DNA of 64,000 nt from Roseibacillus sp. (GCA_002686085.1 NZAC01000002.1:45920-109919); one strand, 5' to 3'; positions 29,886 through 53,092 are shown, counted from the first letter of the stretch. Notes: generated by a model from the sequence alone, not told the origin. Numbers and translations: made by a program.

Positions 29886-30156
29886 GGAACCAAGGAGATT
29901 TTCGCCGCACTCTCAGGAGAGACATCTCCGTCCTCCCGTCGCAATGTGGGTAATTCTGCTTTTGAGGCAGAATAAGGAGGAGACCCTGTCCGTATGGGAT
30001 TACGGATTTCTACGCGGAGGTTCTACGATTCCAGCGATATTGGCTCCTTATAGCTGTCATGCTAATGGAGAAAAATCTGGCTAGAATACCGAGGGTTTTT
30101 ACGGCGTTGCAAGTTTAGGCGTGGAAAGGCCGTTTGAACTTATCCAGACTACAGCC

Positions 30157-31680
30157 ATGGTCTCGAGAAACATTAAATTTATGGTGAGCGGATTTTTTCT
30201 CCTCTGCGCCAATTATTGCCCTGCGGCCCCGTGGGCACAGTGGGGGGGGAGCCCAGACAAGAATATGGTTTCCCCTGAGCTGGGTTTGCCAATGGAGATT
30301 TCCGGAGGCGAGGAGAGGGAGGACCGGGAAGGAGAGATTAACCTTGCGAGTGCCAAGGGGTGCAAATGGGTCGTTGCCCTTGGTTCAGAGTCATATGGAA
30401 CGCCAACAGTGGGCAGTGGAGTGGTTCTGGTGGGAACGAATAATGAAAAGCCAAGAAACCCATCCATCGCAGGGGACCGTGGAGTAGTGATGGCTTTCCG
30501 GGAAAAGGACGGAGAGTTTCTCTGGCAGCTGACCGCACCTAAGCTTCCGGGCGGGGATGAGGTAGACTGGGAATACCTTGGGATCTGCTCGTCCACGTTG
30601 ATTGAAGGAGAGCGGGGGTATGTCATGACCAATCGGGGAGAGGTCGCTTGTCTCGACCTGAAGGGGCTGGTCAATGGCAATCAGGGCATTCAGAGCGAGG
30701 GTCAATATATGGCGGGGCCAGGTAAGAAGGGAGCTGATGTGGGGCCTACAGATGCCGATATTTTATGGACCTATGACATGATCAAGGAGCTTGGAGTTGT
30801 TCCACATAATATCACGAGTAGCTCCGTTGCTTTGGTGGAGGGAAAGATTGTGGCGACAACTTCGAATGGAATCAATGAAGAGCATGATCATATCCCTTCA
30901 CCGAAGGCACCTGCCTTGATCACATTGAATGCAATGACTGGAAAGCTCGAGGGCATCGAGAAGGCTGGCATCTCGGCGGCAACAATGCATTGCAATTGGT
31001 CTTCACCCTGCATTGGAAAACGGCGTGGGCGCCCTGCGATATTCTTCGGAGGTGGAGATGGCTTCCTGCATGCATTTGATCCTGCAGGAAAGAAGTCGGA
31101 TGAAGGCAGCCCTGTCCTGCAGGAGGATTGGCGGGTAGATGCCAATCCTCCGGAATATCGGTTTGATGAGGACGGTAAGCCTCGGGACTACCCGTCATAT
31201 CGGGGTCCGAGTGAAATTGTGGGAACCCCGGTTTATCATAAGGGAAAGGTGTTCGTGACGGTAGGGCAGGACCCGGAAAATGGAGATGGAGTGGGGATGC
31301 TCAGTTGCGTAGATGCAGAAACTGGAAAGCCGGATTGGACCTACAAGAAGATTAACCGCTCTCTATCAACTCCCTCCGTGAAGGACGGCCTCGTTTACAT
31401 TGCGGATTTCACTGGTCAGATTCATTGTGTCGATGCCAGCTCTGGTAAGGCGCTTTGGGTTCACGATACGCTAAGCCGAATCTGGGGTTCCACTCTGGTG
31501 GCAGACGGCCGGATCTATATTGGGACAGAGGATGGGGAAGTGATTATCCTGAAAGAGGGACGTAATCTTGAAGAGGTGGGGACTGCTGAGTTCTCAGGCC
31601 CTATTTATTCCAGTTTGGTGGCGGCCAATGGGACCTTATATGTCCAGACCCAGAACCATCTTTACGCTTTCGGGAAATAA
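30157..31680 (+). CDS. PQQ-like beta-propeller repeat protein
   Basis: The ATG at 30157 gives the signal peptide [25 protein letters not shown]. It has the [11 protein letters not shown] motif and repeated blades ([49 protein letters not shown]). Confidence 0.65.
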
Positions 31681-31692
31681 TACCAGACCTGC

Positions 31693-32973
31693 TCACTGGT
31701 TGCGCAGGCCGTAGAGGGCCTTTTTAGTTCTCACGATGAGCATATCCCCGGAAACCGCGGGAGACCCCATGCATCCAGCTTCCAGTTCGTTCGTTGAGAT
31801 GACCTTGAAATTACGCTCAGCGGCAAGAACGGTGCCCTTCCCGTTTTCGTCGAACAGGTAGATCATCCCGCCGGCCATGATGGGAGAGGCGGAGAAGTTC
31901 CCCCCAATCCGCTTCTTCCATATTTCAGTGCCCGTCCGGGCATCGAGGCAAGCGGCGACTCCCCCATCATCGATCATGAAAAGAAGGTCGCCCCTGATAA
32001 GGATGGATGGCTTTTTCGGTGCCGCCTTCGTATATCGCCAAGCCACGTGACTCTCGGTAACGTGACCCTCTCCATCTGGACGAACGGCGAGGAGAATGCC
32101 CTTACTGAAGCCCATTGTGGTGTAGACCATCCCAAGGCCTGTGACCGGTCTGCAGGAGGTGGAATGAGTTCCAATCGTCTCCACCCGCCAAAGCTCCTTT
32201 CCAGTAGTTGGATTGTATCCATACAGAGCCATTGCTCCCGCACTGACGAGGACGGACTTTCCGCCGGGGGTTTTGACCATTATCGGAGTGCCATAGGCCT
32301 TGCGCATGTCGCCGTCTCTCTTCGGTTTTCCACTGGCGTCGAGATCGCGGTAATCGACGCTCCGAGGCGTTTTCCAGAGCGTCTTCCCAGTCAGCTTATC
32401 GAGTGCCACAACAAATTGATGATCAGCGCCGTCGAAGTTTAGGATAAGAGAATCACCATGGAGGATTGGAGAAGAGCCGGCGCCCCGGAAATGATCGCAG
32501 GTAAAGTCAGTACGTTTCCAGACAACCTCACCATCGGAAGCCCTGAGGCACGCTGTATATGGAGAGCCGAAAGTCAGGTATACTAATCCGTCTTCAAGCG
32601 CTGGAGTAGGTGAGGCGTAAGAGTTAAAGGCGTGACAGAACTGTGGTTTTTCCACCGTCCAAAGCAGCTTATCGTAGAGAACTTTGCCATTGGATTTGTT
32701 GAGACAGAGAACCGAGAGTTTCGTGCCCTCGACATTCGCATTTGTAACCCAGACTCGGTCCCCCCAGACCACGGGAGAAGACCAGGCCTTGCCCTGCAAG
32801 GGGGTTTTCCAAGCGACATTCCTCTCCTCATTCCATACCGTGGGTAATCCAGCATTTTCGGCCCGCCCATCCTCGCCGGGACCCCGGAACTGGTCCCAGT
32901 TCTCAGTCGCGTTGGAGAGGATGCAGAGAGCCGCGAGATAGAGAAGGGTGAGACATGCCTGACGGAAAAACAT
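31693..32973 (-). CDS. PQQ-like beta-propeller repeat protein
   Basis: Signal peptide MFFRQACLTLLYLAALCILSNA, the NWDQFRGPGEDG motif and repeated propeller blades. Confidence 0.65.
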   Translation of the reverse strand: MFFRQACLTLLYLAALCILSNATENWDQFRGPGEDGRAENAGLPTVWNEERNVAWKTPLQGKAWSSPVVWGDRVWVTNANVEGTKLSVLCLNKSNGKVLYDKLLWTVEKPQFCHAFNSYASPTPALEDGLVYLTFGSPYTACLRASDGEVVWKRTDFTCDHFRGAGSSPILHGDSLILNFDGADHQFVVALDKLTGKTLWKTPRSVDYRDLDASGKPKRDGDMRKAYGTPIMVKTPGGKSVLVSAGAMALYGYNPTTGKELWRVETIGTHSTSCRPVTGLGMVYTTMGFSKGILLAVRPDGEGHVTESHVAWRYTKAAPKKPSILIRGDLLFMIDDGGVAACLDARTGTEIWKKRIGGNFSASPIMAGGMIYLFDENGKGTVLAAERNFKVISTNELEAGCMGSPAVSGDMLIVRTKKALYGLRNQ

Positions 32974-33036: not shown

Positions 33037-34830
33037 TCATGGAGCAGTTCGACCCAGTGGGGAAGGAAGCGTTTTCCCCTGCTGGTAGAGTTTCAGGCGT
33101 TCCTGTTGCTCCTTCTGCTTGTCTGGCCGCTGGCCGGCCTCCAGAAGTGCAATGACTTTCAAGGTTGTCTGAATTGCTGCAGGAAACTGGTTCGCAGCGG
33201 CGTGAGCGGCTGCGAGGGTAGAGAGAAGAGCTGGGTCATCGGTAGCACCCGGAGCCTGCATCATGAATTTTGCGTAACGGAGGGACTCCGCTCCATTCCT
33301 TACAGAGGAGTTGCCGGCGGTGGCCAAGAGCCACGAAACTCTGTTCAGGGCTGCAATCTGCTTTGGCGTGTATTTCAGGCTTGTGAGAAAAGAGGATAAG
33401 GCTTCCGCTTCTCGATTTTGCCGAAGAAAAATTTCGCCAAACTGGAAATGTACGGATCCGAGCTGCATGTTTCGTTTTTGTTCTGCCGGAATACCGGGGT
33501 TTCCAGGAGGGGCTTCGTGCTTCTCCAGAAAGCTGAGCAGGGAGGCACGGGCCTCTTCGAGATAGGCCCCTTCCATGGAGGCCCTCGAAAGTGCCACGGG
33601 ATCCGCAGGAAAATATTTTTTGGCCCATACTCCCTGGAAGGGAACGGCAGCCTCAAGCGCGGACTGAGGGTTTCTTCCAAGCTTCTCAAGGTCCGATATG
33701 ATGTGTGATACCTCTACCGGGCCTTTATAGATCGCGCTGAGCCACCCTCCCCGGTCGATCAGAAAACTTACTGGTACCGGCATCTGATGATGACGGTAGA
33801 CAGTCGCTAGAATCGATTGCTGAAGAAGCGAGAGGAGTCGTTCATCCGCCATCCCTCCCGCACCTCGAAACCCAAATTTTGCCAGAGCTCGTGCGGCATC
33901 CTCCGGAGTAATCTGTTCATCTGGATTGAGGTGGTCGACGTTTAGGGCGATAACCCTGATACCTTTGGATTCGAGCAAGCTACGAGAGCTCTCAAATGCC
34001 TCCAGTTCGGAAGCGCAAGGGGTGCACCAACTCGCCCAGAGATTGATGAGAACCGCCGTGCTTGCAGTCAGTCGAGTAATGCTTTGTGCCTTGCCCGAGA
34101 AATCCTGGTAGCTGAGCTCGGGAATCTTGAGAGGTTGCGAGAGCCGGATGCGAGCGACCTCCGTCGCCTCGGGGAGGCTTATTGGCTTAGCCGGAAGACT
34201 GACGGTCTCTCTCTTGCCTGCCTCTATCGCTTGCCCACGTTCCTGCGTCAGTATCCAGCGTTTCCCTTCCTCGAGCCCTTTAAATTCTTCTTCCGCTCCG
34301 CCCGCCCAGCGGACCTTTGCCGCTACAAGACGCTTGTCCGCGGCTCCAAGGCCAAAGTGAATCCACTTACTCGATTGGCTCATCAGGCCATTACCAGCGT
34401 GGAGGGTCTTTACCCGGCGCTGGGCAGAGTCAGAGAATATGAGTTCGACCTGCGACCCAATGGCATCCCGGGAACATTTGCTTGCCGGGTTGCCCACCAG
34501 TCTGAAGGAAATCCAGCGGGAGCTCTCCGGAGGAATCTTGTTCTGAAGGAACTGTAGACGAGGAGCGGAGCGGTTGGAGAACCAGAGATCCAAGTCTCCA
34601 TCGTGGTCCCAATCTGTAAGTGCAAGGCCTCTTCCATCCGAGGGCATTCCAAACCCACTGAGTGTTGAGATGTCGGCGAAGTCACCCTGCCCGGTGTTCA
34701 GGAAGGCACAATGCCGCTCCCTCCCGCTGAAGGAGGAGCCATCCCGAATGCGTTGGGCGAGATCGCTGAAAGCTCGAAGGTAGCCCTTGGTTCCCTCGTC
34801 CGGACTACTTGTCTCTGGTGCTTGCGACAC
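33037..34830 (-). CDS. ASPIC/UnbV-like + TlpA-like thioredoxin (WCTPC) + TPR-like protein; possibly the C-terminal part of a read-through product with 34852..36603
   Basis: No signal peptide. The GTG start is merely the first start-like codon, 7 codons after an in-frame TGA. FG-GAP-like blade LTDWDHDGDLDLWFSN, ASPIC/UnbV-like RDAIGSQVELIFSD...LHAGNGLMSQSS, thioredoxin motif WASWCTPC, and a helical TPR-like C-terminus. Confidence 0.6.
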   Translation of the reverse strand: MSQAPETSSPDEGTKGYLRAFSDLAQRIRDGSSFSGRERHCAFLNTGQGDFADISTLSGFGMPSDGRGLALTDWDHDGDLDLWFSNRSAPRLQFLQNKIPPESSRWISFRLVGNPASKCSRDAIGSQVELIFSDSAQRRVKTLHAGNGLMSQSSKWIHFGLGAADKRLVAAKVRWAGGAEEEFKGLEEGKRWILTQERGQAIEAGKRETVSLPAKPISLPEATEVARIRLSQPLKIPELSYQDFSGKAQSITRLTASTAVLINLWASWCTPCASELEAFESSRSLLESKGIRVIALNVDHLNPDEQITPEDAARALAKFGFRGAGGMADERLLSLLQQSILATVYRHHQMPVPVSFLIDRGGWLSAIYKGPVEVSHIISDLEKLGRNPQSALEAAVPFQGVWAKKYFPADPVALSRASMEGAYLEEARASLLSFLEKHEAPPGNPGIPAEQKRNMQLGSVHFQFGEIFLRQNREAEALSSFLTSLKYTPKQIAALNRVSWLLATAGNSSVRNGAESLRYAKFMMQAPGATDDPALLSTLAAAHAAANQFPAAIQTTLKVIALLEAGQRPDKQKEQQERLKLYQQGKTLPSPLGRTAP

Positions 34831-34854
34831 GACCTGCCGCCAGTAGAAACTTCA
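34821..34854 (-). promoter_or_regulatory. in-frame UGA plus a candidate SECIS-like hairpin
   Basis: Minus-strand RNA is UGAAGUUUCUACUGGCGGCAGGUCGUGUCGCAAG. The 5-bp stem GCGGC/GUCGC closes the loop AGGUCGU, which begins 16 nt after the UGA. The stem can be extended by C-G and U-A pairs across a G.A mismatch. Confidence 0.3.
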
Positions 34855-36603
34855 CAAGTCATCCGGGTCTCTCTGAGTGATGAATCCGTTGGTTACGAGG
34901 AGGTCCTCCCATCCATTGTTGTCGAGGTCAGCGAAGAGGGAACTCCATGCCCATCGACCCATGGTGGTACCGGAGGAAACGCTGACATCCTTGAAGCGCC
35001 CCTGGCCAAGGTTCTGAAAAAGTGAATTTCCTCTTGCATGGCGCTGATAAAGCGCCCGAGTTTCGGCTTTGCCTCCGCTCTTGAACTTTTCCTGAAAAGC
35101 AATGCGGTTACCGGCCGAGGAGAACATGTTTCCGACGTAGAGGTCGGCAAGTCCATTGTTGTCAAAGTCACCCCAGCATGCAGACATGCCGGCTGCGACA
35201 TCCCGCACACCGGCCTCGGCAGCTACGTCAGTGAAAGTGGATTTACCAGATTCTCGGAGAGCATTGCGGTAGAGGTTATTTCCGCCAAAATCATTGGCGA
35301 CGTAGAGGTCCATATCCCCGTCCTGGTCGTAGTCCTCCCAGCTGGCGGAATACGAGAACTTGCTGTTGCCGGGATGCAGACCCGCTTCCTTGGTCACATT
35401 GCGGAAGCGCAAGCTGCCTTCGTTCCTCAGTAGTTCATTGCGGCCTCCATTGGTAGCATCATGGTAGGGTAGTGGCCTTGCCACAAAGGAGTGGCGATTT
35501 GCTCCAGCCCGTTGCACGTAGCAGCTGGCAAAGAGGTCGAGATCTCCATCTTCGTCATAATCCGCCGCCGCCAGAGAATATGGAACAGCAGAAGGAAAGC
35601 TTTTTGCGGTTACCGGAGAAAAAGTTCCCGTTCCATCATTTTCAAGGATGAGAACCCCTGAAGCCATTGCAATGGCTGCATCCTGATCCCCGTCATTATC
35701 AAAGTCGGCGAACAGTGATCCAAAGCTGTGATCGAGAAGTCCAAGTCCAGATTCCCGGGATCGATCAATAACCGTGCCATCCTGCTGCTGAACGAACAGT
35801 CTGTTGGGGAGACCGCCGCCGTCGCAAAGGTAGATGTCATCAAGTCCGTCATTATTGATGTCGGCGGCAGCGAGTCCGTGCCAGCCTCCAATTTCGATAC
35901 CAAGAAGAGTCTCAATCCGGCCTACCCAGTGATCCATTCCATGGACGACCTGAGTCTTCTCCTCAAAGGAAGCAAGCACTGCGCCTGTGGAATCTGCCAA
36001 ACTTCCTCCAGTACCCCGAAGGCACTCCTCATGGCTTGTGACTTTCAGATCCAGAAGGGCAGGAGGATCATCCTTGGTCCACTGGGCGGTCCATCTGGCA
36101 TTTATCTGCAGCCTTGAATCGGCAATCTGAACATTGAGTGCAGTGGTTGCTGTTTCTCCGGAGAGGTCGACTTTGACGACTTTAATTTCGGCCATTGTCG
36201 CCTTGTCGTTGCTGAACTTACCGCGGAGATCTTGAAGAGCCTCAGAAAGATCCATTGGCTTGCCCTCGATATTGCTGGCCCGTTGGACATGAAAGGCTTC
36301 GCCAGCAGGAAGAGAGTTCATAAGGAATCCGCTCAGGGGGTGGCACGTTCCCGCTGGTGGAGTTGTAATCTTGGCACGGAGAAAGTCCTTGATTTCTTTC
36401 AGCTGGAGCCCGGTCGCGGAGGCAAAAACCTCGGTCTCCCACTCCGAGAGCGTTGGGTCAGGATCTGAATTAACTGTTTCCGGCGCTGACCGAGATTCGT
36501 TCCAAGCAGGGTCGGGACGTGACGGCTCTTCTTTCTTCTGTTGACAGGCCGAGGATAGCATTGTCAGGAAGAGCAGACTGGCCAAGCGAGAAGAAGAAAG
36601 CAT
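34852..36603 (-). CDS. FG-GAP/VCBS repeat protein (CRTAC1-like N-terminal part) with an export signal
   Basis: Signal/lipoprotein-like N-terminus MLSSSRLASLLFLTMLSSAC. Multiple FG-GAP-type Ca-binding loops (DINNDGLDD, DFDNDGDQD, DYDEDGDLD, DYDQDGDMD, DFDNNGLAD, DLDNNGWED). It ends at a TGA in frame with the next ORF. Confidence 0.7.
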   Translation of the reverse strand: MLSSSRLASLLFLTMLSSACQQKKEEPSRPDPAWNESRSAPETVNSDPDPTLSEWETEVFASATGLQLKEIKDFLRAKITTPPAGTCHPLSGFLMNSLPAGEAFHVQRASNIEGKPMDLSEALQDLRGKFSNDKATMAEIKVVKVDLSGETATTALNVQIADSRLQINARWTAQWTKDDPPALLDLKVTSHEECLRGTGGSLADSTGAVLASFEEKTQVVHGMDHWVGRIETLLGIEIGGWHGLAAADINNDGLDDIYLCDGGGLPNRLFVQQQDGTVIDRSRESGLGLLDHSFGSLFADFDNDGDQDAAIAMASGVLILENDGTGTFSPVTAKSFPSAVPYSLAAADYDEDGDLDLFASCYVQRAGANRHSFVARPLPYHDATNGGRNELLRNEGSLRFRNVTKEAGLHPGNSKFSYSASWEDYDQDGDMDLYVANDFGGNNLYRNALRESGKSTFTDVAAEAGVRDVAAGMSACWGDFDNNGLADLYVGNMFSSAGNRIAFQEKFKSGGKAETRALYQRHARGNSLFQNLGQGRFKDVSVSSGTTMGRWAWSSLFADLDNNGWEDLLVTNGFITQRDPDDL

Positions 36604-36722: not shown

Positions 36723-39700
36723 CTACTGCCCGATCGCAATCCTTACGCGAGTGTATCGGTTCGAGTTCCCGGAAGCAGGAATCTGGTCCCGGATGGTCAC
36801 AGTTTCTGTTCCATCACCATTATCTCGAGGTTCGCCGACAGTTTCTTCTGAGGGGATCCAGCTTATCAGATCGTTTGAGAATTGAACTTCGTAGGAGAGA
36901 TCAAGAGCGCCCTTCTGTCTTCGGAAGGAGAGAGCCAGATAGTCCGCGCCATCATACTCTACCAATGAGGCGCGGTAATTATTGCCGGAATCACTGGTGG
37001 TCGGGTTGCGACCAAATCCATACTCCATCACGGTATTCAGGGTATCTGCATCAAGATCTACCGACCCTCCAGTGATCGTCGGGTCAGAAACGGACTCCTC
37101 GGAAAAATTCTGGTACTTCCACGAGGAGAAAGTGACGGCAAAAAATGAAGAGGAAATGCCGGGATCTCCTCCCTGCTGAAGGCTGACACCCCAATTGGCG
37201 GGGCGATCGAAGTCAGTGATCGGAGTGGTGGCTGGATTGCGCGCAACGAGCGAATGCCCTGCGTCGTCGGTGGCATCATACCATGCATCGTTGTAGCTAA
37301 ATTCGAGTATGTTCTCGCCCTCCGCGTCCAGAATCTGGAGCTGCTCTCCATCATTACTGAGTTTGCCTGTGTATTCCCCGGCGACATTATCTGTCCCTTG
37401 ATATCGTAAATTAAAGGCGGTCAGGTTTGCTACCACCAGAATATGCTGGCCCGCTGCGAGGATAGTTTGTGGTGGAAAGGATAGTGAGATTCCCTCCACG
37501 AAACTGGCTCCACTGATATCCAGAGGAGTGGATCCTGTATTTGTCAGCTCGACGAATTCGAAGTCCTCTGCCGTGAGGGTGGGATCGATTGCAAGTTCAC
37601 TTTCTGTTGGCGCTGCAGGAGCAAAAAGGATTTCAGTTATCCTCAGGAAGTCCTGTCCGGGTGTTGGGCTTCCTGGGTAGGAAAGAGTATCAATTACTAC
37701 TCCCATTTCGTTTTTTAACGTAAGGGTCTCTCCTCGAGCGGAGAGCTGACCGTCATAGCCGCTGATCAGATAGCGTTTCTCGCCCGCCTTGGGGCTGATG
37801 CTTCGCTCTCGAAATCCCCGGGCGTCCCGCGCTACGTTAAGGCGCCCTCGTGCGGGTATGACTGTGCCGGCAGGGAAAGAAAAAGAGATGCCTCCTGAAA
37901 TCTCCCAGTTTGAGCAGTCGATTGCGGTTCGGTTGGGATTCACGAGGAGGAAGTATTCTCCACTCTGGTCGGGTGAAGCGCCTCTTGCTGCTGGATTATA
38001 GTCGACGGTCCCGAACCTGATGACCGGAGTCTCCGGCTGTCCGGCAGGAATCTCACTCAGCCCGTAGAGCTGATTGCGCCGCCCCGGAATGTGCTCGACC
38101 TTGATTCGGTTTGCCGCTTCCCGAAGGGTATTGCGATTACCCCAAGATCCCCATTTTCTGTAATCGAGATCGGCATCATCGTTTCCTCTCTGAGCGTTGT
38201 TGTCGTTGGGGTCAATGAGAGCAGTCAGCTCATCGACTCTGTCGGGGAGGTAACTGACGGGAGAGGAAGCAGGCCCAATGAGCTGATCCATCAGGGTTCG
38301 GACTCGACGCAAGTACATCTGGTTCAGGGTCGTATCGTTGAAGATAAAGGTCTTAAGACGGTTTGAGGCTCCGGCCCGTAGATTATTATTTGTAAAGGTG
38401 TCATCAAAATACGCTGGTCCACTGACCCAGTTGCGCCCCAAGCAAAGGTCAATATCCCAAACCAGTGGCCGCCACTCCCCAGTCCCTAGAGTATCCCGGT
38501 AGAGGTAGTAATTCTTGTGGCCATGATCTCTGTTGTTCGTGAGATCGAGCGCTGCAAGGTAGTTGATAGTTCCGGGGATATCAATATTGTCATAGCCATA
38601 CCGAAGTTTGGCTTCTCCCGACAGGCCAAGCCCGTTTATGAGGTCCTGAAGATCACGATTATTTTCATTTTTCCTGGTTTTCTTGTTAATACCACTGCTC
38701 GAGGAATCGAGCCGGTTGTACATCTTGTAGAGGGCACCTTCAGGGTCTAGTCCTACTCGGTCCAGATACCGGTCATCGCCATCTTCCACCATGTCCGCGA
38801 CACTGAAGAAGGATCCGTTTTGCTGGATCCGAACCGGAAAAGCAAAGTGTGCGGGCTCTCCCGAGCGGCGGACCATCTCGTAGCCGAGAGTATTCCGTGT
38901 TTTTGACTTATCCGCCCAGTTCGTGAGCATGTTGATGTCTTTCACCCGCCCTTCGCCTTCCTGAAAGAGAAAGCGGTTGCTCTTATTGAAATCGAAATCG
39001 TAGCTCTTCTTCGGGAATCCTCCCGTCGACTGGCCATGCCGATCTGCTTGGATGTTATCGTAGAATTCCCCCAGGTAGTAGACCGATCCCCGGGAGCCGC
39101 TGGTTGTGTTGGCCCCTCCGGGATTGGAGGTAAACCAGTGGAAGATGGGAAGGTTGGAATTTGTCACGGAGGCATCCGCAGCAATCGTTCCGAAGTATTC
39201 CGGCGAGTCTCTTGGGTCAGGGAACTGGGGTTGCCTGGCAGTAACGCCCGCTGTGTCCGTGGCCAGCACTTTCCAGCGCAGCATTTCGCCCCGGCTGAGA
39301 TCGGTAGTTGAAATCGTGGCGGTGAAGATTCCATCACCAGCGAAGGCGTCACCCCCTCGTCCGTCATCCAGCATGGGAGAAGTAGTTTCCTGATCATACA
39401 TGACCCGCCAGATCAGGCTCACGGTGTCGACCGGGTGCATGGTCGGAAGGACCTCTGCCTCGATGACCACACTTGTCGTGCCGAAAGATCCTTCGTAGAT
39501 GGTGACAGTCTGGTCGGTGCCGTCTGATCCATCCTGATCAAAGGGGCCACTGTCGACGAGGAAATCCAGACGGTCTCCCTCATTCAGATTTCTTATGATT
39601 GAGAAATCGACCGGCCCCCCATCTGTGAGCTGGGAGAAGATTTCATTCCCCTCATGGAAAACTCGTCCAGTTGTGCCATCCCCAGAGGCACTGAGGTTAT

Positions 39701-41195
39701 GAAAGGTTCCCGCGATGGTGTGCAGACCGGAGGTGTCAGAGACCCACCTTCGAATCGGATACTGCTCGGGACCTGGATTAGAGTCATTAGGGTGCATACT
39801 GGTGGCTTCCAGAGAAGTCCATGGTGAGGAAGCCGAGGTGTTGGCATCCCAGGCACTTCCGGACCACTCCTGCGTTGTACCGTTCCAAGGCCCTCCTTGT
39901 TCGCCACCTGCGAAGGGAATGAAGCTCGTATCAGGGTCATAAGGCCCTGCGCCCTCCTGATAGCCGTAAAACCAGCCCAGCGCGCCCTGGTTGCCCGAGA
40001 ATTCTTCAGCTGAGTCAGCCACAACCGGGGGTGTGGCCGTAGCGAGGGTAATCGGAGGAATATTTCTGGTGACATTCCGGATTAGCGGGCCCACTGAGGA
40101 ATTTCCAGTGTTGTTTGGCGCGTTGGGGGTTGGGACAGCGAAGTAGGCAGGGGTGCTTGTTCCGCTTGAGCTAAGGGCCTCGAGCTCTGGAACGATCAGG
40201 AAGTCCGAGCTTCCCGGGGAAACATTGAGCCCGTGTATACAGAGAACATTTTCCCCCAACGACAGGAGAGAGGGAGAAATATCATAATTATCATACACCA
40301 CGGCCTGACTATCACTATGGCTGGCCGTCGCTCTCGATTGGTAGTTCAGTTCGTCGGTTGACGGTGCGTTTTCCTCTGCAACCGGAAGGGGGTTTCCGTT
40401 GAGGTAGGCAACGAATCCATCATCCCACTTCATTTTCAGATTCAGGGCGGACAGAGAAGATGGATCTGGAGCAGTGAAGGGGATCCGAATGTAAACGGAG
40501 GTTGCTTCGCTGAACATCTGCTCCTCGACGTCAGTTTCAATCAGGAGATCGTAGGCATCGGGGCTGCCCGTGGCATATCCGATTCCCGCACTACCGGCAC
40601 TCCATTGGCTATCCGGAAACTCGGTTGCGATCCACGAGTCCGCATTGGTTCCCTCGAGAACATCACTTTCGCCGTTGGAGGGGATTTGGTATCTGATCGC
40701 TGTGCCAGGGCCGATGAGGGCAGTCGCCGAGGTTATCTGCTGAAGACCATAGGAGATATCCTGAGCCTGCAGAGGGAAGGATGGGGAGAAGTGCTGTTCC
40801 ACAGTCAGCCCATCTGGGCGGACAATCGCGAGATACTCTCCTTCGCTGGCGAGCTTGAAGTTTGTGTGCAGGGTGCGATCCGGATCTTGACGATCCTTTG
40901 CCGAGGCAAAGACGAGGAGGCGCTCATTTGGATTCAGGGTGAGATCAGGAAAGGCCCACTTATTCAGGTTTGTTGCGTTGTCGGTGAGGAACCAGCCCTC
41001 CAGATTAATCGCGACAGTGCCCTGATTGAGAAGCTCGATCCAGTCTTCATAGTCGCCATCCTCATCACGGATACTGCTCTGGTTAGATGCCATGAATTCG
41101 GCAATAACGAGAGACTGGGAGAAGGAGGGAAGCGCGGTAGTGGCGATGATGGCTACGGCAACCGCGGGTGCCACGAAGCGGTTAAGGGGTGTCAT
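36723..41195 (-). CDS. giant exported lamin-tail-domain (LTD) / CotH kinase-family protein
   Basis: The ATG at 41195 gives the signal peptide MTPLNRFVAPAVAVAIIATTALPSFSQ. LTD motifs VIAEFMASN...WIELLNQGTVAINLEGWFLTD, EYFLLVNPNRTAIDCSNWEISG and ITEILFAP...FEFVELTNTGSTPLDISG. CotH-like motif KNYYLYRDTLGTGEWRPLVWDIDLCLG. Confidence 0.8.
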   Translation of the reverse strand: MTPLNRFVAPAVAVAIIATTALPSFSQSLVIAEFMASNQSSIRDEDGDYEDWIELLNQGTVAINLEGWFLTDNATNLNKWAFPDLTLNPNERLLVFASAKDRQDPDRTLHTNFKLASEGEYLAIVRPDGLTVEQHFSPSFPLQAQDISYGLQQITSATALIGPGTAIRYQIPSNGESDVLEGTNADSWIATEFPDSQWSAGSAGIGYATGSPDAYDLLIETDVEEQMFSEATSVYIRIPFTAPDPSSLSALNLKMKWDDGFVAYLNGNPLPVAEENAPSTDELNYQSRATASHSDSQAVVYDNYDISPSLLSLGENVLCIHGLNVSPGSSDFLIVPELEALSSSGTSTPAYFAVPTPNAPNNTGNSSVGPLIRNVTRNIPPITLATATPPVVADSAEEFSGNQGALGWFYGYQEGAGPYDPDTSFIPFAGGEQGGPWNGTTQEWSGSAWDANTSASSPWTSLEATSMHPNDSNPGPEQYPIRRWVSDTSGLHTIAGTFHNLSASGDGTTGRVFHEGNEIFSQLTDGGPVDFSIIRNLNEGDRLDFLVDSGPFDQDGSDGTDQTVTIYEGSFGTTSVVIEAEVLPTMHPVDTVSLIWRVMYDQETTSPMLDDGRGGDAFAGDGIFTATISTTDLSRGEMLRWKVLATDTAGVTARQPQFPDPRDSPEYFGTIAADASVTNSNLPIFHWFTSNPGGANTTSGSRGSVYYLGEFYDNIQADRHGQSTGGFPKKSYDFDFNKSNRFLFQEGEGRVKDINMLTNWADKSKTRNTLGYEMVRRSGEPAHFAFPVRIQQNGSFFSVADMVEDGDDRYLDRVGLDPEGALYKMYNRLDSSSSGINKKTRKNENNRDLQDLINGLGLSGEAKLRYGYDNIDIPGTINYLAALDLTNNRDHGHKNYYLYRDTLGTGEWRPLVWDIDLCLGRNWVSGPAYFDDTFTNNNLRAGASNRLKTFIFNDTTLNQMYLRRVRTLMDQLIGPASSPVSYLPDRVDELTALIDPNDNNAQRGNDDADLDYRKWGSWGNRNTLREAANRIKVEHIPGRRNQLYGLSEIPAGQPETPVIRFGTVDYNPAARGASPDQSGEYFLLVNPNRTAIDCSNWEISGGISFSFPAGTVIPARGRLNVARDARGFRERSISPKAGEKRYLISGYDGQLSARGETLTLKNEMGVVIDTLSYPGSPTPGQDFLRITEILFAPAAPTESELAIDPTLTAEDFEFVELTNTGSTPLDISGASFVEGISLSFPPQTILAAGQHILVVANLTAFNLRYQGTDNVAGEYTGKLSNDGEQLQILDAEGENILEFSYNDAWYDATDDAGHSLVARNPATTPITDFDRPANWGVSLQQGGDPGISSSFFAVTFSSWKYQNFSEESVSDPTITGGSVDLDADTLNTVMEYGFGRNPTTSDSGNNYRASLVEYDGADYLALSFRRQKGALDLSYEVQFSNDLISWIPSEETVGEPRDNGDGTETVTIRDQIPASGNSNRYTRVRIAIGQ
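39495..40025 (-). repeat. fifth copy (in the CotH protein) of the unnamed ~180-aa module shared with the neighbouring gene
   Basis: ADSAEEFSGNQGALGWFYGYQEG...PWTSLEATSMHPN...PIRRWVSD...GDGTTGRVFHEGNEI...DQDGSDGTD matches the consensus of the four copies in 41357..45043. Confidence 0.6.
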
Positions 41196-41251
41196 AAATG
41201 GGGAGGGGTTACCCTGTTCGATCGTCACTCAGGGCTGAGATAAAGGCAATG

Positions 41252-41356: not shown

Positions 41357-44300
41357 TCAGGGTTCAAGCTGCAAGAGGCGGTAATAGCGTGCGGATGCCG
41401 GGGCATCAGGAATAATGATCTCCGTTTCTCCTCCGGCGGCTCCGGTGGCGGTCGCTCCAATGTTAGTCCAGTTCTGGAGGTCGCTTGACTGCTGGGCCTG
41501 GTACTCCTGTCCCTGATTGGATGTCCAACGCAGGATCACATTGCCCTCCTCGTAAGAAAAATCGATCAGGCGCAAATCCGACACCTCACCCGGAGAGAAA
41601 GGTCGTCCATCGGGTTGCAGCGGGTTTTCTGGAATGGTCGGATCGATAATCAGGTAGAAGTTGGAACCGTCGGATCCGTCGTTGTCGCTTCCGTCAACAC
41701 CGCGCGGGCTCAAGGCTAGTTCAATGTAGTCTCCGGCTCTCGCATCGACAAATGACCATGCCGTCTGCCCCAAGATATCGTCTCCCGCAATCGTTGTGCT
41801 GTGCAGCTGTTGCCCATTGTGTAGAAGAACAGCTGTCACCCCATTGCCTCCGGCACTCACTTTCTGGACCGAGTAATGAAGAGCAAGCTCGGCATCCTGA
41901 TCCACTTCCCACCGACGTGTAGCCCAATGAACCACGCCATTGTTGTCACCACTTGGGTGTCCGTCGAGGGCCCCTAACGCGGTCCAGGGAGGATTAACGG
42001 GAGTCCCGGACGCGTCACTCCAATCAAAAGCGAATCCATCCCAGAAGTTTTGCTCACTTAAGAAGGGCGTCCCGTCGGAGGGGAAGGGGATGAAGTTTGA
42101 GTTGGCGGGAGGCTCCCCGTCCGCGCTGATATCATAGTAACCATGGGTCCACCCATATTCTCCCTGGGGGTCGTCGCTAAAGGGGAAGTCGAATTGCGAA
42201 TCTGCGATGGCGGTGAAGTTTTCAGCAACATTCGAAAACCCATCCAGGGGATCAAATCCGGTGGCGACCTCATGAAAATCGCCAAAGGAATCATTATCGG
42301 TATCAGAATTGCGAGGGTCAGTCCCAGCGACTGCCTCCGCTCCATCTGCTAGACCATCGGCATCCGTATCGGCAAGGGTGGGATTTGTCCCTGCGAGAAA
42401 CTCCTCCTCGTCAGGAAGTCCATCGGAGTCGTAGTCGCTTCCTGCAGAAAGCTGATCGAGATCACCGGGAAAGTAGACCTCTTCCCACAGGTCAAAAATT
42501 CCATCCTCATCCGTATCGGGAGCGTTGGCAGGAATAAAAAGGCTGCCATCGGGCTGTATGGCAACAGCGGGAATCCGGTTATCGATTCTCATCGAATTGG
42601 CTGAGCCATCGCTTCCATCAATGGCGCTGGTCCGACCCTGAGGGCTGAGAATGAGATCGAGTACGTCACCATTAGAAATATTGGCGTAGTAAATTCGGTT
42701 GACGCCCGCGGTGTCGCTGACAACAGCACTATCGAGCCGCTCTCCGTTCAGGTGCACCGCCCCGGTGACTCCGTCGCCGTTGGGGTTCACTTTACGGGTT
42801 GACCAACTGATCCTTACGGCAGACTCACCGTCCAAGCCCTCTGCCGTCCATCTCCGAACGGTCCAATGTTCCTCGTTCGGTGCGCTATTGGTGCCATTTG
42901 GATGGCTATTTTCGGCTTCCAAAAGGGTCCAAGGGGCTCCGCCGGGAGCCAGACGCCATCCCGTGCCTCTCCAGCTTTCGGCAGGGAAGGGGACAAAATC
43001 TGCGACGTGGTCATAATCGATTCCGCCACCATCGAGGGTAACGTTCCGGTAGCCGGATTCCCATCCACTCTCTCCTTGGATTTCAGAAAAGCTCAAAACG
43101 GAGTCTGCGAGAGTTCCGGAAAGTGGGGTGTCTCCCTGACTATTGGGATCACTACCTGCTTGCAGCTCTTCGCTGTCACTAAAGCCATCCCCGTCGGAGT
43201 CCGCGTTGTTGGGATCTGTCGCAGGCACTCCAAATACCTCGTCACCATCATTAAGGCCATCTCCGTCACTGTCAGGGTTGCAGGGGTCAGTTTCAAAGGT
43301 CTCAATTTCCGCTCCATCGTCGACTCCATCTTCGTCGGTGTCGCCGATCGTTGGATTCGATCCGCTGGCGACCTCGATCTCATCCGCCGCCCCATCGGCA
43401 TCCCAGTCTGATCCTGCGGCTAACTGAGTCAGGTCTTCGCCGAGAAGATCTGTTTCAATGAAATCAGGGATCGAGTCACCATCTGAGTCCACGGCATCCA
43501 TGGGGATGAAATATTTGCCATTGGGCTGAACTGGAGCAGCCGGGATCTTCGTGTCGATGCGCATCCAGTTGGCGGAACCATCGCTCCCATCAATTCGGTT
43601 GCCACTGACTCCCACCGGTGTCACTACCTGGTCGATGATATCTCCATTGTTGATCGTAAGGTAATAGGATCGGGTATCGCCCACGCCATCAGAAACAGCA
43701 ATGGAGTCAACGCGCTCCCCGTTAAGATGGATCGCTCCTGTGGTGCCGTCTCCCGCAGTGTTCGCGGCCCTGTGTGTCCAATAGACTCTCACATCAGTCG
43801 GGCTATCTACCGAGGCGACCCAGCGCCTGATCGTCCAGTGCTCCTCATTGGGAGCACTGTTTGTGCCATTGGGATGGGTGTTTTCTGCTCCAAGAGTGGT
43901 CCAAGGAGCTCCTCCCGGGGCAAGGCGCCACTGGCTCTGAGCTTCCCTCCATGCCTCGGCAGGAAACTGAATGAACCCACTATTGGGATCATAATTGTCG
44001 CCACCTCCGTCGATAGAATAGTTACGATATCCAGAAATCCATCCTTCTGCTCCTTGGACGTTGCTGAATTGCTCGCGGGAATCAGCAAGCCCGGCTCCCT
44101 GCGGCAGGGACAAGGCGTTACTGGGGCTACTACCGCCATCGATCTCCTCGGCGTCCGGGTAGCCGTCGCCGTCAGTATCTGCATTCCCAGGATCGGTTCC
44201 ATTAGCAAATTCTTCCTCGTCGGAGAGGCCGTCCGAATCGAAATCTGCCCCACCCGACAGTACGGTCAGGTCCCCGGGAGCCCACGTTTCTTCCCAGGCG

Positions 44301-45043
44301 TCGGGTAACTGGTCGCCGTCACTATCAACAATAGTGGAGATAATCATCGAGAGAAGGGAGCTGTCACTTCCGTCCGCGGTGTTCCCTCCTGGACCTTCAG
44401 ACGTGTGGACCAAGTCAATGTGGTCACCTACATCGGCTGTTACAAATACGGTCTTTGTGATGCCCGTGGTATCATCTCCGGCAATAGTGGTTTTGCCGAC
44501 CATGGTTCCGTTAAGATGGATCTGGGCGGTGACTCCTTGTCCGTTGGTGTTACCTGCAGTCTTGGAAATGAACCATTCGACTTGCAGGAGAGTTGGATCG
44601 GTCAGATCGTCCTCTGTGGCCGTCCATCGGCGCACCGTCCAGTGGATTTCGTCCTGATTGGTGCCGTTTGGATGGGAGCTTTCGACGCCAAGAGTCGTCC
44701 AAGGGGGATTGGTGGTATTTCCACCAGCGTCAAAAAAGTCGAAGATCGTACCATTCCAAGCATTCGTGTCAGAACCGAAGTTTGTGCCATCAACCGGGAA
44801 GGCAATGAAGTCGTTTTCCGGGTCGTAATCATTACCGCCGCCGTCGAGGGTAAGATTGCGGTAACCGTAATACCAATCTTCCTGACCTTGGATTCCTGAG
44901 AACTCTGCGGCTGAGTCGGCTAGTGTGCGTTGGGCAGAAGCCTGACCGCAGATGAGGAGGAGGGGGCAGACACAAGCAGAGAGAAGAGCTCTGCTTTTCA
45001 GGGACAGGGAGGGAACGCGAGGAGTTGGAGGATGGATCTTCAT
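41357..45043 (-). CDS. giant exported protein: four unnamed ~180-200-aa modules separated by thrombospondin-type-3-like Ca-binding repeats
   Basis: The ATG at 45043 gives the signal peptide MKIHPPTPRVPSLSLKSRALLSACVCPLLLICGQASAQ. D-x-D-x-D-G repeats include DSDGDQLPD, DTDGDGYPD, DSDGDGLND, DSDGDGFSD, DTDEDGIFD and DTDADGLAD. A C-terminal beta-rich domain ends RYYRLLQLEP. Confidence 0.75.
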   Translation of the reverse strand: MKIHPPTPRVPSLSLKSRALLSACVCPLLLICGQASAQRTLADSAAEFSGIQGQEDWYYGYRNLTLDGGGNDYDPENDFIAFPVDGTNFGSDTNAWNGTIFDFFDAGGNTTNPPWTTLGVESSHPNGTNQDEIHWTVRRWTATEDDLTDPTLLQVEWFISKTAGNTNGQGVTAQIHLNGTMVGKTTIAGDDTTGITKTVFVTADVGDHIDLVHTSEGPGGNTADGSDSSLLSMIISTIVDSDGDQLPDAWEETWAPGDLTVLSGGADFDSDGLSDEEEFANGTDPGNADTDGDGYPDAEEIDGGSSPSNALSLPQGAGLADSREQFSNVQGAEGWISGYRNYSIDGGGDNYDPNSGFIQFPAEAWREAQSQWRLAPGGAPWTTLGAENTHPNGTNSAPNEEHWTIRRWVASVDSPTDVRVYWTHRAANTAGDGTTGAIHLNGERVDSIAVSDGVGDTRSYYLTINNGDIIDQVVTPVGVSGNRIDGSDGSANWMRIDTKIPAAPVQPNGKYFIPMDAVDSDGDSIPDFIETDLLGEDLTQLAAGSDWDADGAADEIEVASGSNPTIGDTDEDGVDDGAEIETFETDPCNPDSDGDGLNDGDEVFGVPATDPNNADSDGDGFSDSEELQAGSDPNSQGDTPLSGTLADSVLSFSEIQGESGWESGYRNVTLDGGGIDYDHVADFVPFPAESWRGTGWRLAPGGAPWTLLEAENSHPNGTNSAPNEEHWTVRRWTAEGLDGESAVRISWSTRKVNPNGDGVTGAVHLNGERLDSAVVSDTAGVNRIYYANISNGDVLDLILSPQGRTSAIDGSDGSANSMRIDNRIPAVAIQPDGSLFIPANAPDTDEDGIFDLWEEVYFPGDLDQLSAGSDYDSDGLPDEEEFLAGTNPTLADTDADGLADGAEAVAGTDPRNSDTDNDSFGDFHEVATGFDPLDGFSNVAENFTAIADSQFDFPFSDDPQGEYGWTHGYYDISADGEPPANSNFIPFPSDGTPFLSEQNFWDGFAFDWSDASGTPVNPPWTALGALDGHPSGDNNGVVHWATRRWEVDQDAELALHYSVQKVSAGGNGVTAVLLHNGQQLHSTTIAGDDILGQTAWSFVDARAGDYIELALSPRGVDGSDNDGSDGSNFYLIIDPTIPENPLQPDGRPFSPGEVSDLRLIDFSYEEGNVILRWTSNQGQEYQAQQSSDLQNWTNIGATATGAAGGETEIIIPDAPASARYYRLLQLEP
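41642..44923 (-). repeat. four intragenic copies of the module (about 44333-44923, 43547-44089, 42581-43111, 41642-42208)
   Basis: Each copy starts (L/I)ADS..(F)S..QG..GW..GY and contains PWT.LG/E...HP.G, HW..RRW, G.G(V/T)T(A/G)..H.NG and DGSD(G/S). The two central copies share the identical runs WRLAPGGAPWT and HPNGTNSAPNEEHWT. Confidence 0.8.
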
Positions 45044-45187
45044 CGTGGGAGGCGTCGGGGTTCCCGGTATTCTTACCTCACCATGGGGCTCATAAGCAAG
45101 GAGGCAAATGCGCACGCTATTGGGGTGTAGGCCAGGAGGGGGTGAACCAGAGCCTCCTGGTGACATCATTCACCCCGACCACTGGGT

Positions 45188-45901: not shown

Positions 45902-46052
45902 AGGTTAAAGATTTGGATGAGTGAATTGGGACCTCCCGGAGTTGTTTGCGCGGGGGCAGGGTTTCGATCTTTCGGTCTCGTCTTCAGAGCTGTCCAGAAT
46001 ATTGTGTCCGGTGAGCGGGGATTACAATTTGGGATGCGGGGGCGGAGCTGAG

Positions 46053-50780: not shown

Positions 50781-50800
50781 TGGTCCGGGAATGAAGCCGC

Positions 50801-53092
50801 TTATTTCGCGGCGAACGGTTTGGTTTCAGCTGTATGGCTTACTGCCACCTTGGTTAATTCTACGAGCAAACTCCTGATATTGTAACCAGATTTTACGAAT
50901 TTTGCATGCAGTGAGGCTTTCGTGTCAGCGCCATAGGCATTGATGGACTGCTTGGTAAAGTGGTGGAACAGCTGGGTAATGAAGGCTTCGTGGGCCAATC
51001 GGCTTCCGGCAGCCATGGTGGCGACATCGTGGATGCTGCGGATCGGAATCTCTCTCTCATTCTCGTTGACGTAGCGGGTGACCGTGTCGACTGGCTTTCT
51101 ATTATCCTTGAGCCGGTGGCGACCGACGGCATCGAAGTTTTCAAGGCTGAATCCCACAGGATTGATGACCCGGTGGCATTCCATGCATGAGGTCGCCTTG
51201 GTGAGCTGGGTAATCTTTTCGCGCATGGTCAGGGCCGGGTCGAATTCGTCGTCTTTGAACGCGACTGCCTCGACGGGCGGCTTGAGAAGGCGGCCGAGGA
51301 CGTTTCGGCTGATGAAGACACCCCGGTGAATGGGCGAGGTGTTGTTGTGGTAGGCATGAGCAGCAAGCAGGAACGGATGAGTGAGAATACCGGAGTTAGG
51401 CCTGTTGGGGAGGGTTACTTTTCGCAACGCTTCACCCTGCAGAGGCTCAGCTCCATAAAAAGTGGCAAGGCGCTCATTCAGGAAGATGTTTTTGTTGAGC
51501 AAGAGGTCCCGGTAGTCGGAGCGATCACTCCAGACCACCTCATCGACAAAATGCTCCAGCGACCGTCGCAGATCCCTCACGAGGCGCTCGTCGAAACCGG
51601 GGAAAAGGTCGGGATCCTTCCGGAGGTCATGCTGCTCGTCTAGAGCCAGCCACTCTCGGAAGAATCCCTGCATCTTTCTCCTCGTCTTATTGCTGAGAAT
51701 CATGCGCTGGATCTGAGTGGTAATCTGCTCTGGGCTTTGAAGGGAGCCCTCGCCGGCGGCGTGGAGGAGCTTTTTGTCGGGGAGCCCATCCCAGAGGGTC
51801 AGGGCCAGGCGCGATGCCACGGTGAAGTTGTCCGGGCGCCCATTGTTATCGGCGAGTCCCGGGTAGAGAAAGCGGGGAGAGGTCAGGACCAGCAGCATGG
51901 AATGCCGGAGTGCAACCATTGGGTCGGGCTGATGGTTGAACCGGCTGTCAACGAACCTCTCCTGCTGCTCTGCGTCAAGAGGCCGCCTGAATGCCCGGGC
52001 AGCGAATTGGTGGGCGTAGGAGCGAAGGGTCGCCGGGTCCTTACGCTGTTCCTTGCTCAGTCCAGAGACCGTGCCAAGATAGGTGATGAGGTGATTGACC
52101 AGTTCGACAGCGGCATAGGTGGAGGCCCGCTGCCATTCCTTCGAGACTCCGGAACCACGTTCATAGCCAAGACTGCGATCATCCGGGGGAAACTTGGTTC
52201 CAACTACCGTGACGGTGTCGAGGACCTCAGGCATGAGGTAGTCATTAGGGATGGCCTCCCAGATTCCACCGGGAGGTTTCCACTCAAGGTGTAGAGATGC
52301 CACCTTCTCCTTGTAGGTGAAGTAGCGCAGATAGACCGGATAGCCCCGACCTCCTAGCAGGAATTTACTCCCTGACTTTTCGTGGGACTCGTTCCTTGTG
52401 CTTACGTAGGCGTCAATAAAGGAGTTCTTGTCGTCATCTCCACGGAATGAGTTCAGCAGGAAGAGAGCGCTGTTGTGGGTTCTCACCCGGAACTGGTAGA
52501 GGCCTGTTACCGGGGCAAGAAGGGAGCCCGACCAGCGGACCGAAAAACCAGTTTGGTTGATTTTGTCAGCCGGAACCCCACCTCCCCAGTTGAAATCGAT
52601 GGTGGGATCGATCCGGTCCAGGACGTGTTCTTTCTCCTTGTTCATCTTTTCGACATTAAAGTAGCGCCCTCGGAGGCCCCGTTCTGGCACGAGAGTCTGG
52701 GGCCGTTTGAAGGACTCAATGAGATCCGCTGCAGATTGCCTGAACTGTTCGTTTGTCAGCCGTAGAAGTTCGACTCGTGGGGGGCGATTGCGGAGCTGTG
52801 CCGCCGGGCTGTAGAATTCCTCGTGAATATACCGGGCCACGGCATGGGCATCCTCATCGACCACCGTGTCCTCTTTTTCCTCAGGCATCGACCGGTGAAT
52901 GTAGCGAGCGAGGGACTCTACCGACTTGCGCCCCCAAAGTGGCTCTTCGTATTCACCGTCGGCTCCCTGTCCGTTGTCTCCATGGCAAGAGGCGCAGTGA
53001 GTGACGTAGATTTTCCTGCCATCAGGCTGTCCGAGAGCGCTTCCTGTCATCAGGAGCGCTATCAGGATAAACCGGAGGTGGAGTAATCGCAT
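50801..53092 (-). CDS. DUF1592/DUF1588-type protein with an N-terminal cytochrome-c motif and a PA14-like insert
   Basis: CxxCH motif (CASCHGDNG). PA14-like region [12 protein letters not shown]...[21 protein letters not shown]. Conserved [25 protein letters not shown]. Confidence 0.7.

Follow-up and report, generated by a model that had tools for sequence, protein, structure and literature searches.

Introduction

Several kinds of described extracellular protein come close to the subject of this work, a 1,228-residue, apparently exported protein of Roseibacillus sp. in which four copies of one module (M1 to M4) are joined by thrombospondin type 3 (TSP3) repeats. Its gene lies at 41357..45043, on the minus strand of a stretch of 64,000 nucleotides (GCA_002686085.1 NZAC01000002.1:45920-109919), which we call the window and from whose first letter all positions are counted. 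The nearest in predicted fold are the carbohydrate-binding modules (CBMs) of families 6 and 35. These are beta jelly-roll sandwiches, extracellular, often in tandem and appended to other domains, as the module described here appears to be, and an involvement of Ca2+ is plausible in both. Unlike CBM6 and CBM35, the module measures ~185-200 residues rather than ~130, has an extra loop-rich N-terminal half in which its signature motifs lie, is joined to no glycoside hydrolase here, and has no sequence or profile similarity to either family. PA14 domains also provide a jelly-roll fold match (3abz) and also occur in adhesins and surface proteins, but the Pfam PA14 profile (PF07691) does not match the module.

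In its architecture the protein resembles the signature domain of thrombospondin and the cartilage oligomeric matrix protein (COMP), where Ca-binding type 3 repeats alternate with a lectin-like beta-sandwich. The likeness is one of architecture: homology of the globular part was not found with Pfam TSP_C (PF05735), which matched neither the four-module protein nor 72 diverse modules of the family, and no thrombospondin chain is among the best 50 of 109 fold matches. CglD of Myxococcus uses DxDxDG repeats as a Ca2+-dependent adhesin element (bioRxiv 10.1101/2023.10.19.562135). Runs of such Ca-binding repeats in a cell-surface protein are common to CglD, MtsD and the four-module protein, which, unlike the other two, has no von Willebrand factor A domain and no lipoprotein signal, and whose globular modules are unrelated to theirs. 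The NCBIfam models CglD (NF033765; 66 bits vs 400) and MtsD (NF047639; 58 vs 800) match the TSP3 stretches alone.

Marine Verrucomicrobiota and Planctomycetota play a major part in the degradation and colonisation of algal polysaccharides and particles, and thousands of their large surface proteins are named by their sorting signal alone or called hypothetical. An unnamed beta-sandwich repeat in a giant surface protein of the Planctomycetota-Verrucomicrobiota-Chlamydiota (PVC) group is in itself a common kind of finding, and its function is putative. A ~185-residue module family that is defined by fold, motifs and partners would give such proteins an annotation handle. We find that the module is best regarded as a new and as yet unnamed family within a known kind, the extracellular jelly-roll binding modules, and that it has a conserved link to secreted CotH kinases.

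Four copies of one module, joined by TSP3 repeats

An earlier note on the window had placed four module copies in an exported protein. Its intervals are in frame, correspond to aa 41-237, 319-499, 645-821 and 946-1134, and agree within three residues with the envelopes of a family hidden Markov model (HMM), by which the copies, all on the minus strand, are M1 (aa 39-239; 44327..44929), M2 (aa 317-500; 43544..44095), M3 (aa 643-824; 42572..43117) and M4 (aa 944-1137; 41633..42214). M1, also defined by alignment and BLASTP, and M4, by its identities and its place in the tree the most divergent copy, have a long-loop form. M2, the copy modelled with AlphaFold2 and compared with Foldseek, and M3 have a short-loop form. 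The similarity among the copies is far beyond chance. In BLASTP comparisons M2 and M3 match at E 4e-77 (60% identity), M1 matches M2, M3 and M4 at 4e-47, 8e-44 and 3e-42, respectively, and M2 and M3 match M4 at ~1e-26. Each copy matches the family profile over its positions 2-186, with domain E-values of 7e-59 to 2e-66. The fifth copy mentioned in the note was located in the neighbouring open reading frame (ORF) 36723..41228 (minus strand), at aa 401-581 (39486..40028, minus strand); its E-value is 1e-64 with the family profile (hmmsearch) and 1e-17 to 2e-21 with each of M1-M4 (BLASTP). All five copies are full-length and carry the signature residues of the family, Q16, W21, G24, H76-P77, R92-R93, D157 and D174.

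The landmark motifs described earlier are present in all copies, with small deviations in three of them (DW for GW in M1, LLE for LG in M3, GYYD and a shifted H in M4). Both of the identical runs reported for M2 and M3, WRLAPGGAPWT and HPNGTNSAPNEEHWT, are real.

The repeats between the modules had been called TSP3-like. Membership in Pfam TSP3_bac (PF18884), a 22-residue DxDxDGxxDxxE unit, means a score over the gathering cut-off, and the linkers reach 75.2 bits against a cut-off of 25 (E 3e-21, 7 stretches); by this profile they are bacterial TSP3 repeats. A regular expression finds 12 DxDxD motifs in the protein, distributed as 3 in linker 1 (44096..44326; from aa 240, 267 and 289), 5 in linker 2 (43118..43543; from aa 519, 546, 568, 591 and 615) and 4 in linker 3 (42215..42571; from aa 843, 870, 892 and 914), all on the minus strand. 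The statement that each copy is followed by such repeats thus holds for M1, M2 and M3 but not for M4, after which the same search of the whole protein finds no DxDxD motif and a different domain of ~90 residues follows. From the motif, and from the precedents of thrombospondin/COMP and CglD, we infer that the linker repeats bind Ca2+.

Size, architectures and conserved residues of the family

When 1.84 billion cluster representatives (50%-identity clusters) were searched exhaustively with an HMM, 3,529 proteins were recovered at E<=1e-3, of which 1,617 remain at E<=1e-10 and 458 at E<=1e-30. A word-indexed homologue search yields 17-43 relatives and so strongly under-reports the family in comparison. 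Named sources are Verrucomicrobiota, Planctomycetota, Bacteroidota and Myxococcota, and both the named homologues and a scan of loci centre the family on PVC bacteria. Members overall have one to seven copies. For counts of copies and architectures we took the 149 best-scoring representatives, a sample biased to multi-copy proteins because the ranking is by total score: 72 have two copies, 50 have three, 20 have four and 7 have five to seven.

TSP3-type repeats occur in 57 of these 149 members, 27 with the bacterial kind and 30 with the canonical cysteine kind (C..N..Q.D.D.DG.GD.CD), the latter being typical of planctomycete members with dockerin-like, Cys-rich tails. A PEP-CTERM ending is present in 32, the C-terminal motif that we call the 'FYRV' tail (by regular expression) in 25, and a CotH domain in 23; LTD and CotH occur together in 14 of 23 long family members. 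A member from Algibacter (Bacteroidota) combines seven modules with a ricin lectin and a type IX secretion system (T9SS) tail, and legume-lectin, LamG, cadherin or Ig domains accompany the module elsewhere. The names of homologue records rest on other features (PEP-CTERM, T9SS type A, thrombospondin type 3 repeat) or read 'hypothetical'. 'Choice-of-anchor' is an NCBIfam curation concept for one extracellular domain that occurs with differing C-terminal sorting signals. Because its C-terminal signals alternate between PEP-CTERM, T9SS, dockerin-like and 'FYRV' types, the module, as far as its domain company tells, behaves like such a domain. The NCBIfam choice-of-anchor models do not match it; choice_anch_X matches the neighbouring CotH protein at E 2e-6, at aa 618-641, away from the module.

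An alignment of 72 diverse modules, with a mean column identity of 26%, has the invariant residues W21, G24, R93 and D174 (A5 numbering), and Q16, P66, H76, P77, R92, G119, G128, G153 and D157 are conserved at 90% or more. Neither Pfam-A nor NCBIfam has a match at E<=1 in the module regions of the four-module protein, and with the 72 modules taken singly at the same threshold no match recurs (the best, Laminin_G_3, is found for 2 of 72). Models of CBM_6, CBM35-type domains and PA14 are without a match at E<=1 in the same set. PDB sequence profiles, searched with 5- and 72-sequence alignments, gave chance matches only. The best of these, staphopain (E 0.03, through a QGNNGW motif), was rejected as chance because its fold differs and the catalytic Cys is absent. 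The view taken earlier that the module has no named family is thereby upheld: there is no confident match to a characterised family, and at most a distant fold likeness to CBM6, CBM35 and PA14. On the strength of these profile searches the module is a large, so far unnamed, extracellular domain family. Searches of the literature on Roseibacillus with CotH, or on PEP-CTERM/TSP3/Verrucomicrobia, found nothing on it.

Three observations on individual homologues may be added. In the planctomycete proteins P0020, P0026, P0028, P0036 and P0041 the modules are joined by Cys-containing thrombospondin type 3 repeats (PF02412), which brings their architecture nearer to that of eukaryotic thrombospondins than the architecture of the four-module protein is; the same five proteins end in dockerin/EF-hand-like repeats and a Cys-rich tail. 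In P0018 and P0021, of the LTD/CotH type, the modules seem, by eye, to be nested in another jelly-roll-like domain, whose halves carry W..P.FDDS.W and DDGFVAYL.G and which is uninterrupted in the CotH neighbour at aa ~170-360 (about 40150-40720); an hhalign comparison of that domain with the module family profile finds the two unrelated. A motif near the N-terminus of the Algibacter member was considered as a pectate-lyase-like beta-helix, and this was dropped since Pfam gave no support at E<=1e-3.

Predicted fold of the module

The AlphaFold2 model of M2, built from a 15-sequence alignment, is all-beta and of high confidence (pLDDT 90.7, pTM 0.89). A loop-rich segment of ~85 N-terminal residues, which holds FSGxQGxxGWxYGY, PPWT and HPN, is followed by a regular sandwich of about seven strands. 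Foldseek returned 109 matches in the PDB at E<=1e-3, and their composition was read from the best 50. The top matches are to CBM6 (5fui, E 2e-5) and CBM35 (4qb2, 2w47, 2w1w), with E-values of 2e-5 to 3e-4 and a probability of 1.00; they superpose with TM-scores of 0.31-0.37 (query-normalised) and 0.43-0.48 (target-normalised) and a root-mean-square deviation of 4-8 A. The PA14 insert of the Kluyveromyces marxianus beta-glucosidase (3abz) follows at E 1e-4 with a query-normalised TM-score of 0.39, and a porphyran CBM (8xmz), a pectate-lyase CBM (8x8h), C1q (9lkk) and MAM (8a28) also match. About half of the best 50, the best eight included, are carbohydrate-binding jelly-rolls or enzymes that carry them, and the remainder are mostly influenza hemagglutinin receptor-binding heads. 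The predicted structure thus bears a distant resemblance to CBM6, CBM35 and PA14. According to the model the module has a jelly-roll of the type seen in sugar-binding domains, but membership in any of those families cannot be demonstrated.

The module in a conserved gene cluster

The gene next to the four-module gene, 36723..41228 (minus strand), encodes a secreted protein of 1,501 residues with a CotH kinase domain. Its order is LTD (Pfam, E 9e-36), one module, CotH (E 2e-29), further LTD and a C-terminal tail similar to that of the four-module protein. Pfam identifies an FG-GAP/VCBS propeller in the product of the following gene (34852..36603, minus strand) and UnbV_ASPIC with redoxin in that of the next (33037..34830, minus strand). 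Between 45901 and 31693 every gene is read from the minus strand, with little space between neighbours, and the order is SDR, four-module, LTD-CotH, FG-GAP, UnbV_ASPIC/redoxin and PQQ-type propeller. A search of 31-46.5 kb for promoters and terminators gave counts no higher than expected from shuffled sequence and is therefore uninformative on operon structure.

The gene order is conserved in the loci L001-L005, L007, L008 and L011-L013 of relatives. Six Roseibacillus genomes keep SDR, the four-module gene, the CotH gene and FG-GAP in this order, and the seventh locus, L006, stops just past the four-module gene. The cluster is usually followed by an ASPIC/UnbV gene, with the module-TSP3 protein always adjoining. 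In the single-cell genome L008 a gene like the four-module gene, FG-GAP and ASPIC are found. L011-L013 belong to another lineage of Verrucomicrobiales and encode a three-module TSP3 protein, an LTD-module-CotH-LTD protein with its module at the same position as in the Roseibacillus CotH protein, a 238-residue one-module PEP-CTERM protein, FG-GAP and UnbV_ASPIC; in L011, where the PEP-CTERM gene sits between the CotH and FG-GAP genes, three consecutive genes contain the module. Two or three proteins encoded in a row in this cluster thus bear the module, and the conservation of the cluster reaches past the genus.

Elsewhere the genes around single-module relatives differ from case to case, with nucleotide-sugar genes in one and ECF sigma/FecR/DUF1592/DUF1552 genes in another, from Myxococcales. 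Since these contexts are heterogeneous, the association with CotH and FG-GAP cannot be extended past Verrucomicrobiales and the fusion proteins.

What the module may bind

Fold, architecture and gene cluster together lead us to prefer, tentatively and at a little less than an even chance, the reading of the four-module protein as an exported, calcium-dependent, multivalent lectin-like protein of the cell surface or matrix, which would hold its modules and its CotH partners on one polymer. Each module would be a lectin- or CBM-like binding unit, with a predicted binding site in the conserved loops of its N-terminal half (FSGxQGxxGWxYGY, PPWT, HPN, RRW) and a predicted Ca2+ site, probably at the DGSDG loop. 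The ligand would most likely be a glycan, perhaps exopolysaccharide of the cell itself, perhaps a polysaccharide of algae or particles, which may be anionic. Ca2+ is abundant in seawater, and on taking it up the TSP3 runs would become stiff, acidic spacers that present the four modules for high avidity, with CglD as a precedent. Because the module is shared with the adjacent CotH kinase, and in relatives also with a PEP-CTERM surface protein, it could serve as a common address by which the scaffold, the CotH kinase and the FG-GAP/ASPIC proteins are gathered on one extracellular polymer. In C. thermocellum, LTD-CotH proteins form part of the extracellular cellulosome (PMC6083626), a precedent for such proteins in an extracellular polysaccharide-bound complex.

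Several findings weigh against this proposal. The fold matches are weak, with TM-scores of 0.3-0.5 (0.31-0.40 query-normalised, 0.43-0.48 target-normalised) and 8-16% identity, and cover mainly the C-terminal sandwich; the ~85 N-terminal residues, in which most of the conserved motifs lie, have no counterpart in CBM6 or CBM35. Pfam, hhalign and PDB profiles connected the module with no family of CBMs, PA14 domains or lectins at the level of sequence or profile. The ORFs scanned at 28.3-53.1 kb include no gene for a glycoside hydrolase, lyase or sulfatase. The varied neighbourhoods of single-module relatives in other phyla point the same way, as does the faint evidence of expression of the four-module gene, which consists of one 181-nt metatranscriptome contig.

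The modules of the TSP3 scaffold, of the CotH kinase and of PEP-CTERM surface proteins might instead bind each other or a common protein, and so build a proteinaceous coat or matrix cross-linked by Ca2+ and bring the kinase to the proteins that it phosphorylates. An analogy is provided by the Bacillus spore coat, whose assembly depends on CotH. Protein docking of this kind would fit the presence of the module in two or three genes in a row within a conserved cluster, the CotH fusion in 23 of the 149 top members, the jelly-roll oligomerisation or interaction domains C1q (9lkk) and MAM (8a28) among the fold matches, and the lack of carbohydrate-active enzymes in the scanned neighbourhood. On the other hand, about half of the top 50 fold matches, with the best eight among them, are sugar-binding or are enzymes that carry such modules, lectin domains (ricin, legume lectin, LamG) accompany the module in members of the family, and most members are without a fused CotH. 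We consider this alternative unlikely, if the most serious of those weighed here.

That the module is a very divergent member of CBM6/CBM35 or PA14, with a specificity for uronic acid, beta-glucan or the like, is distinctly improbable. The Foldseek probability of 1.00 for CBM6 and CBM35 chains (E 2e-5 to 3e-4) speaks for such membership, the motifs GDGvtGrI.vNG and GD.iD can, in our own reading, be likened to jelly-roll strands of CBM6, CBM35 and PA14 modules, and the acidic DGSDG loop is presumably compatible with the structural Ca2+ site of CBM6/35. Against this, Pfam gave no match at E<=1 with either the four-module protein or the 72 modules, the TM-scores are low in both normalisations, and the module is ~55 residues longer than CBM6/35. 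Even the PA14 domain encoded in the same window (ORF 50801..53092) is assigned a probability of 0.3% when compared by hhalign with the 72-sequence profile.

A small jelly-roll enzyme, polysaccharide lyase- or hydrolase-like, with the near-invariant Gln, His, Arg-Arg, Tyr and Asp as its active site (Q16, H76, R92, R93, D157 and D174 are the near-invariant polar residues of the 72-sequence alignment, a set which we take to resemble the active sites of jelly-roll lyases), is very improbable indeed, given the up to seven tandem copies and the PEP-CTERM-anchored single copies, a pattern usual for binding modules but not for catalytic domains, the best 50 fold matches, which include no PL7-like or GH16-like catalytic domain and in which enzymes match via appended binding modules, the lack of a Pfam enzyme match, and the spurious nature of the staphopain match, the sole one in PDB sequences.

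If the module turns out to be a carbohydrate-binding family of its own, it would count as a new CBM and would point to the polymer to which cosmopolitan Roseibacillus populations attach. The link to CotH offers a tractable entry to the role of extracellular CotH-family kinases in non-sporulating bacteria. A more far-reaching idea, which we regard as a long shot, is that the module is the shared address tag of an undescribed, conserved extracellular system of marine Verrucomicrobiota, composed of an acidic, Ca2+-binding scaffold of modules and TSP3 repeats, a secreted CotH kinase and a surface anchor that both carry the module, and FG-GAP/ASPIC propeller proteins. By phosphorylation outside the cell, such a system would build and regulate a calcium-dependent coat or adhesion matrix of an ECM-like kind. 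The CotH-family kinase would then presumably be comparable to Fam20C, with anchors that we take to be PEP-CTERM in some lineages and the 'FYRV' tail in others, and in the system as a whole bacteria would have their own equivalent of the thrombospondin / integrin-alpha / secreted-kinase toolkit.

History of the copies

The identical runs in M2 and M3 had been read as a sign of a recent internal duplication, and this is contradicted by the DNA. M2 and M3 are 59% identical in DNA and 61% in protein, only 39 of the 110 codons for identical residues are the same, and most synonymous sites differ. Within the two identical peptide runs 6 of 33 and 10 of 45 nucleotides differ. In the seven Roseibacillus genomes, the nearest relative of each module is its positional counterpart in the orthologue; M2, for instance, is nearer to the second module of the L007 orthologue (74% identity) than to M3 (61%). 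All three Roseibacillus species included in a neighbour-joining tree are represented both in the M2 clade and in the M3 clade. From the synonymous divergence and the same-position identities it follows that the duplication is old and predates the sampled Roseibacillus species. The shared runs, identical in peptide despite many synonymous differences, are maintained by purifying selection, which marks them as loops of functional importance.

The a-b-b-a order proposed for the four copies stands in so far as the outer two share ancestral long loops, but M1 and M4 form no clade and are not each other's closest relatives. Their identity is 42%, against 47-48% for M1 with M2 or M3, and in the tree M1 and M4 pair with the first and the last module, respectively, of the distant four-module protein P0023. 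The length difference that had been described as an extra insert of the outer copies is found where it was placed. The long-loop state is the majority state in the family alignment, however, and M2 and M3 therefore carry shortened loops that arose by deletion.

The four-module protein: termini, conservation and expression

On the minus strand the reading frame stays open in the 5' direction to 45169 (41357..45169). The Met at 45043 is favoured as the start because orthologues align from residue 1 and because a signal-peptide-like N-terminus follows that Met. Judged by its sequence, the N-terminus (MKIHPP..., ending ...LLLICGQASA|Q; whole stretch MKIHPPTPRVPSLSLKSRALLSACVCPLLLICGQASA|Q) is a putative Sec signal peptide (aa 1-38; 44930..45043, minus strand), with a basic n-region, a hydrophobic core and A-x-A. 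A degenerate-pattern scan of species-representative genomes found orthologues of 70-97% whole-protein identity in seven metagenome-assembled genomes (MAGs) of Roseibacillus / Akkermansiaceae and more distant relatives in other Verrucomicrobiota, which assigns the window to a marine Roseibacillus. The orthologues in seven Roseibacillus MAGs align from residue 1, that of L007 from residue 9. All four modules are kept in the 70-97% identical orthologues, and modules, linkers and tail are conserved to a similar degree; M3 is the best-conserved region in two of three orthologue comparisons (81% with L007, 93% with L006), and the putative signal peptide is the least conserved (29-58% identity).

The last ~90 residues (41360..41632, minus strand), which end in ...RYYRLLQLEP, were modelled by AlphaFold2 as a beta-sandwich of six strands (pLDDT 89.5). 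The PDB contains no fold match to this domain below E 0.015, a homologue search with it gave 3 matches, and 8 of 25 homologous tails weakly resemble F5/8 type C in its C-terminal half. Judged by the model it is a generic Ig/Fn3-like sandwich. Such tails measure ~75-90 residues and end in [FY]YR[VLI] plus 2-8 residues, and a similar one forms the last ~90 residues of ORF 36723..41228. Because it occupies the position that PEP-CTERM, T9SS domains and dockerin-like tails have in homologues, the 'FYRV' tail may be a verrucomicrobial sorting or anchoring domain. A PEP-CTERM tail, made up of a PEP motif, a hydrophobic helix and basic residues, is found neither on the four-module protein (...ARYYRLLQLEP) nor on any ORF of at least 150 residues in the window.

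Marine metagenomes contain a near-identical gene in at least 20 runs, which belong to about ten studies. In marine metatranscriptomes, one contig of 181 nt maps to the 3' end of the four-module gene (41389-41569) and two small contigs map to the CotH gene (38509-39000); the contigs are 165-181 nt long overall and have 0-2 mismatches. They hint at low-level transcription in situ, with DNA carry-over as a possible source.

Other genes in the vicinity

Upstream of the four-module gene, and divergent from the SDR gene, 45921-48416 (plus strand) encodes a FecR-domain protein of 831 residues with a proline-rich tandem repeat of roughly a dozen PPPAPAS-like units around aa 290-360. Further along, at 49461-53092 (minus strand), a DUF1552 (HXXSHH) gene lies beside a cytochrome-c/PA14/DUF1592/DUF1588 gene. 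On L017, a Myxococcales contig, a one-module protein is likewise encoded beside ECF sigma, FecR, DUF1592-family and DUF1552 genes; such pairs are numerous in PVC genomes, so that this company is possibly a coincidence. Just downstream of the cluster are three consecutive genes for PQQ/BamB-like propellers, at 28332..29885 (minus strand), 30121..31680 (plus strand) and 31693..32973 (minus strand).

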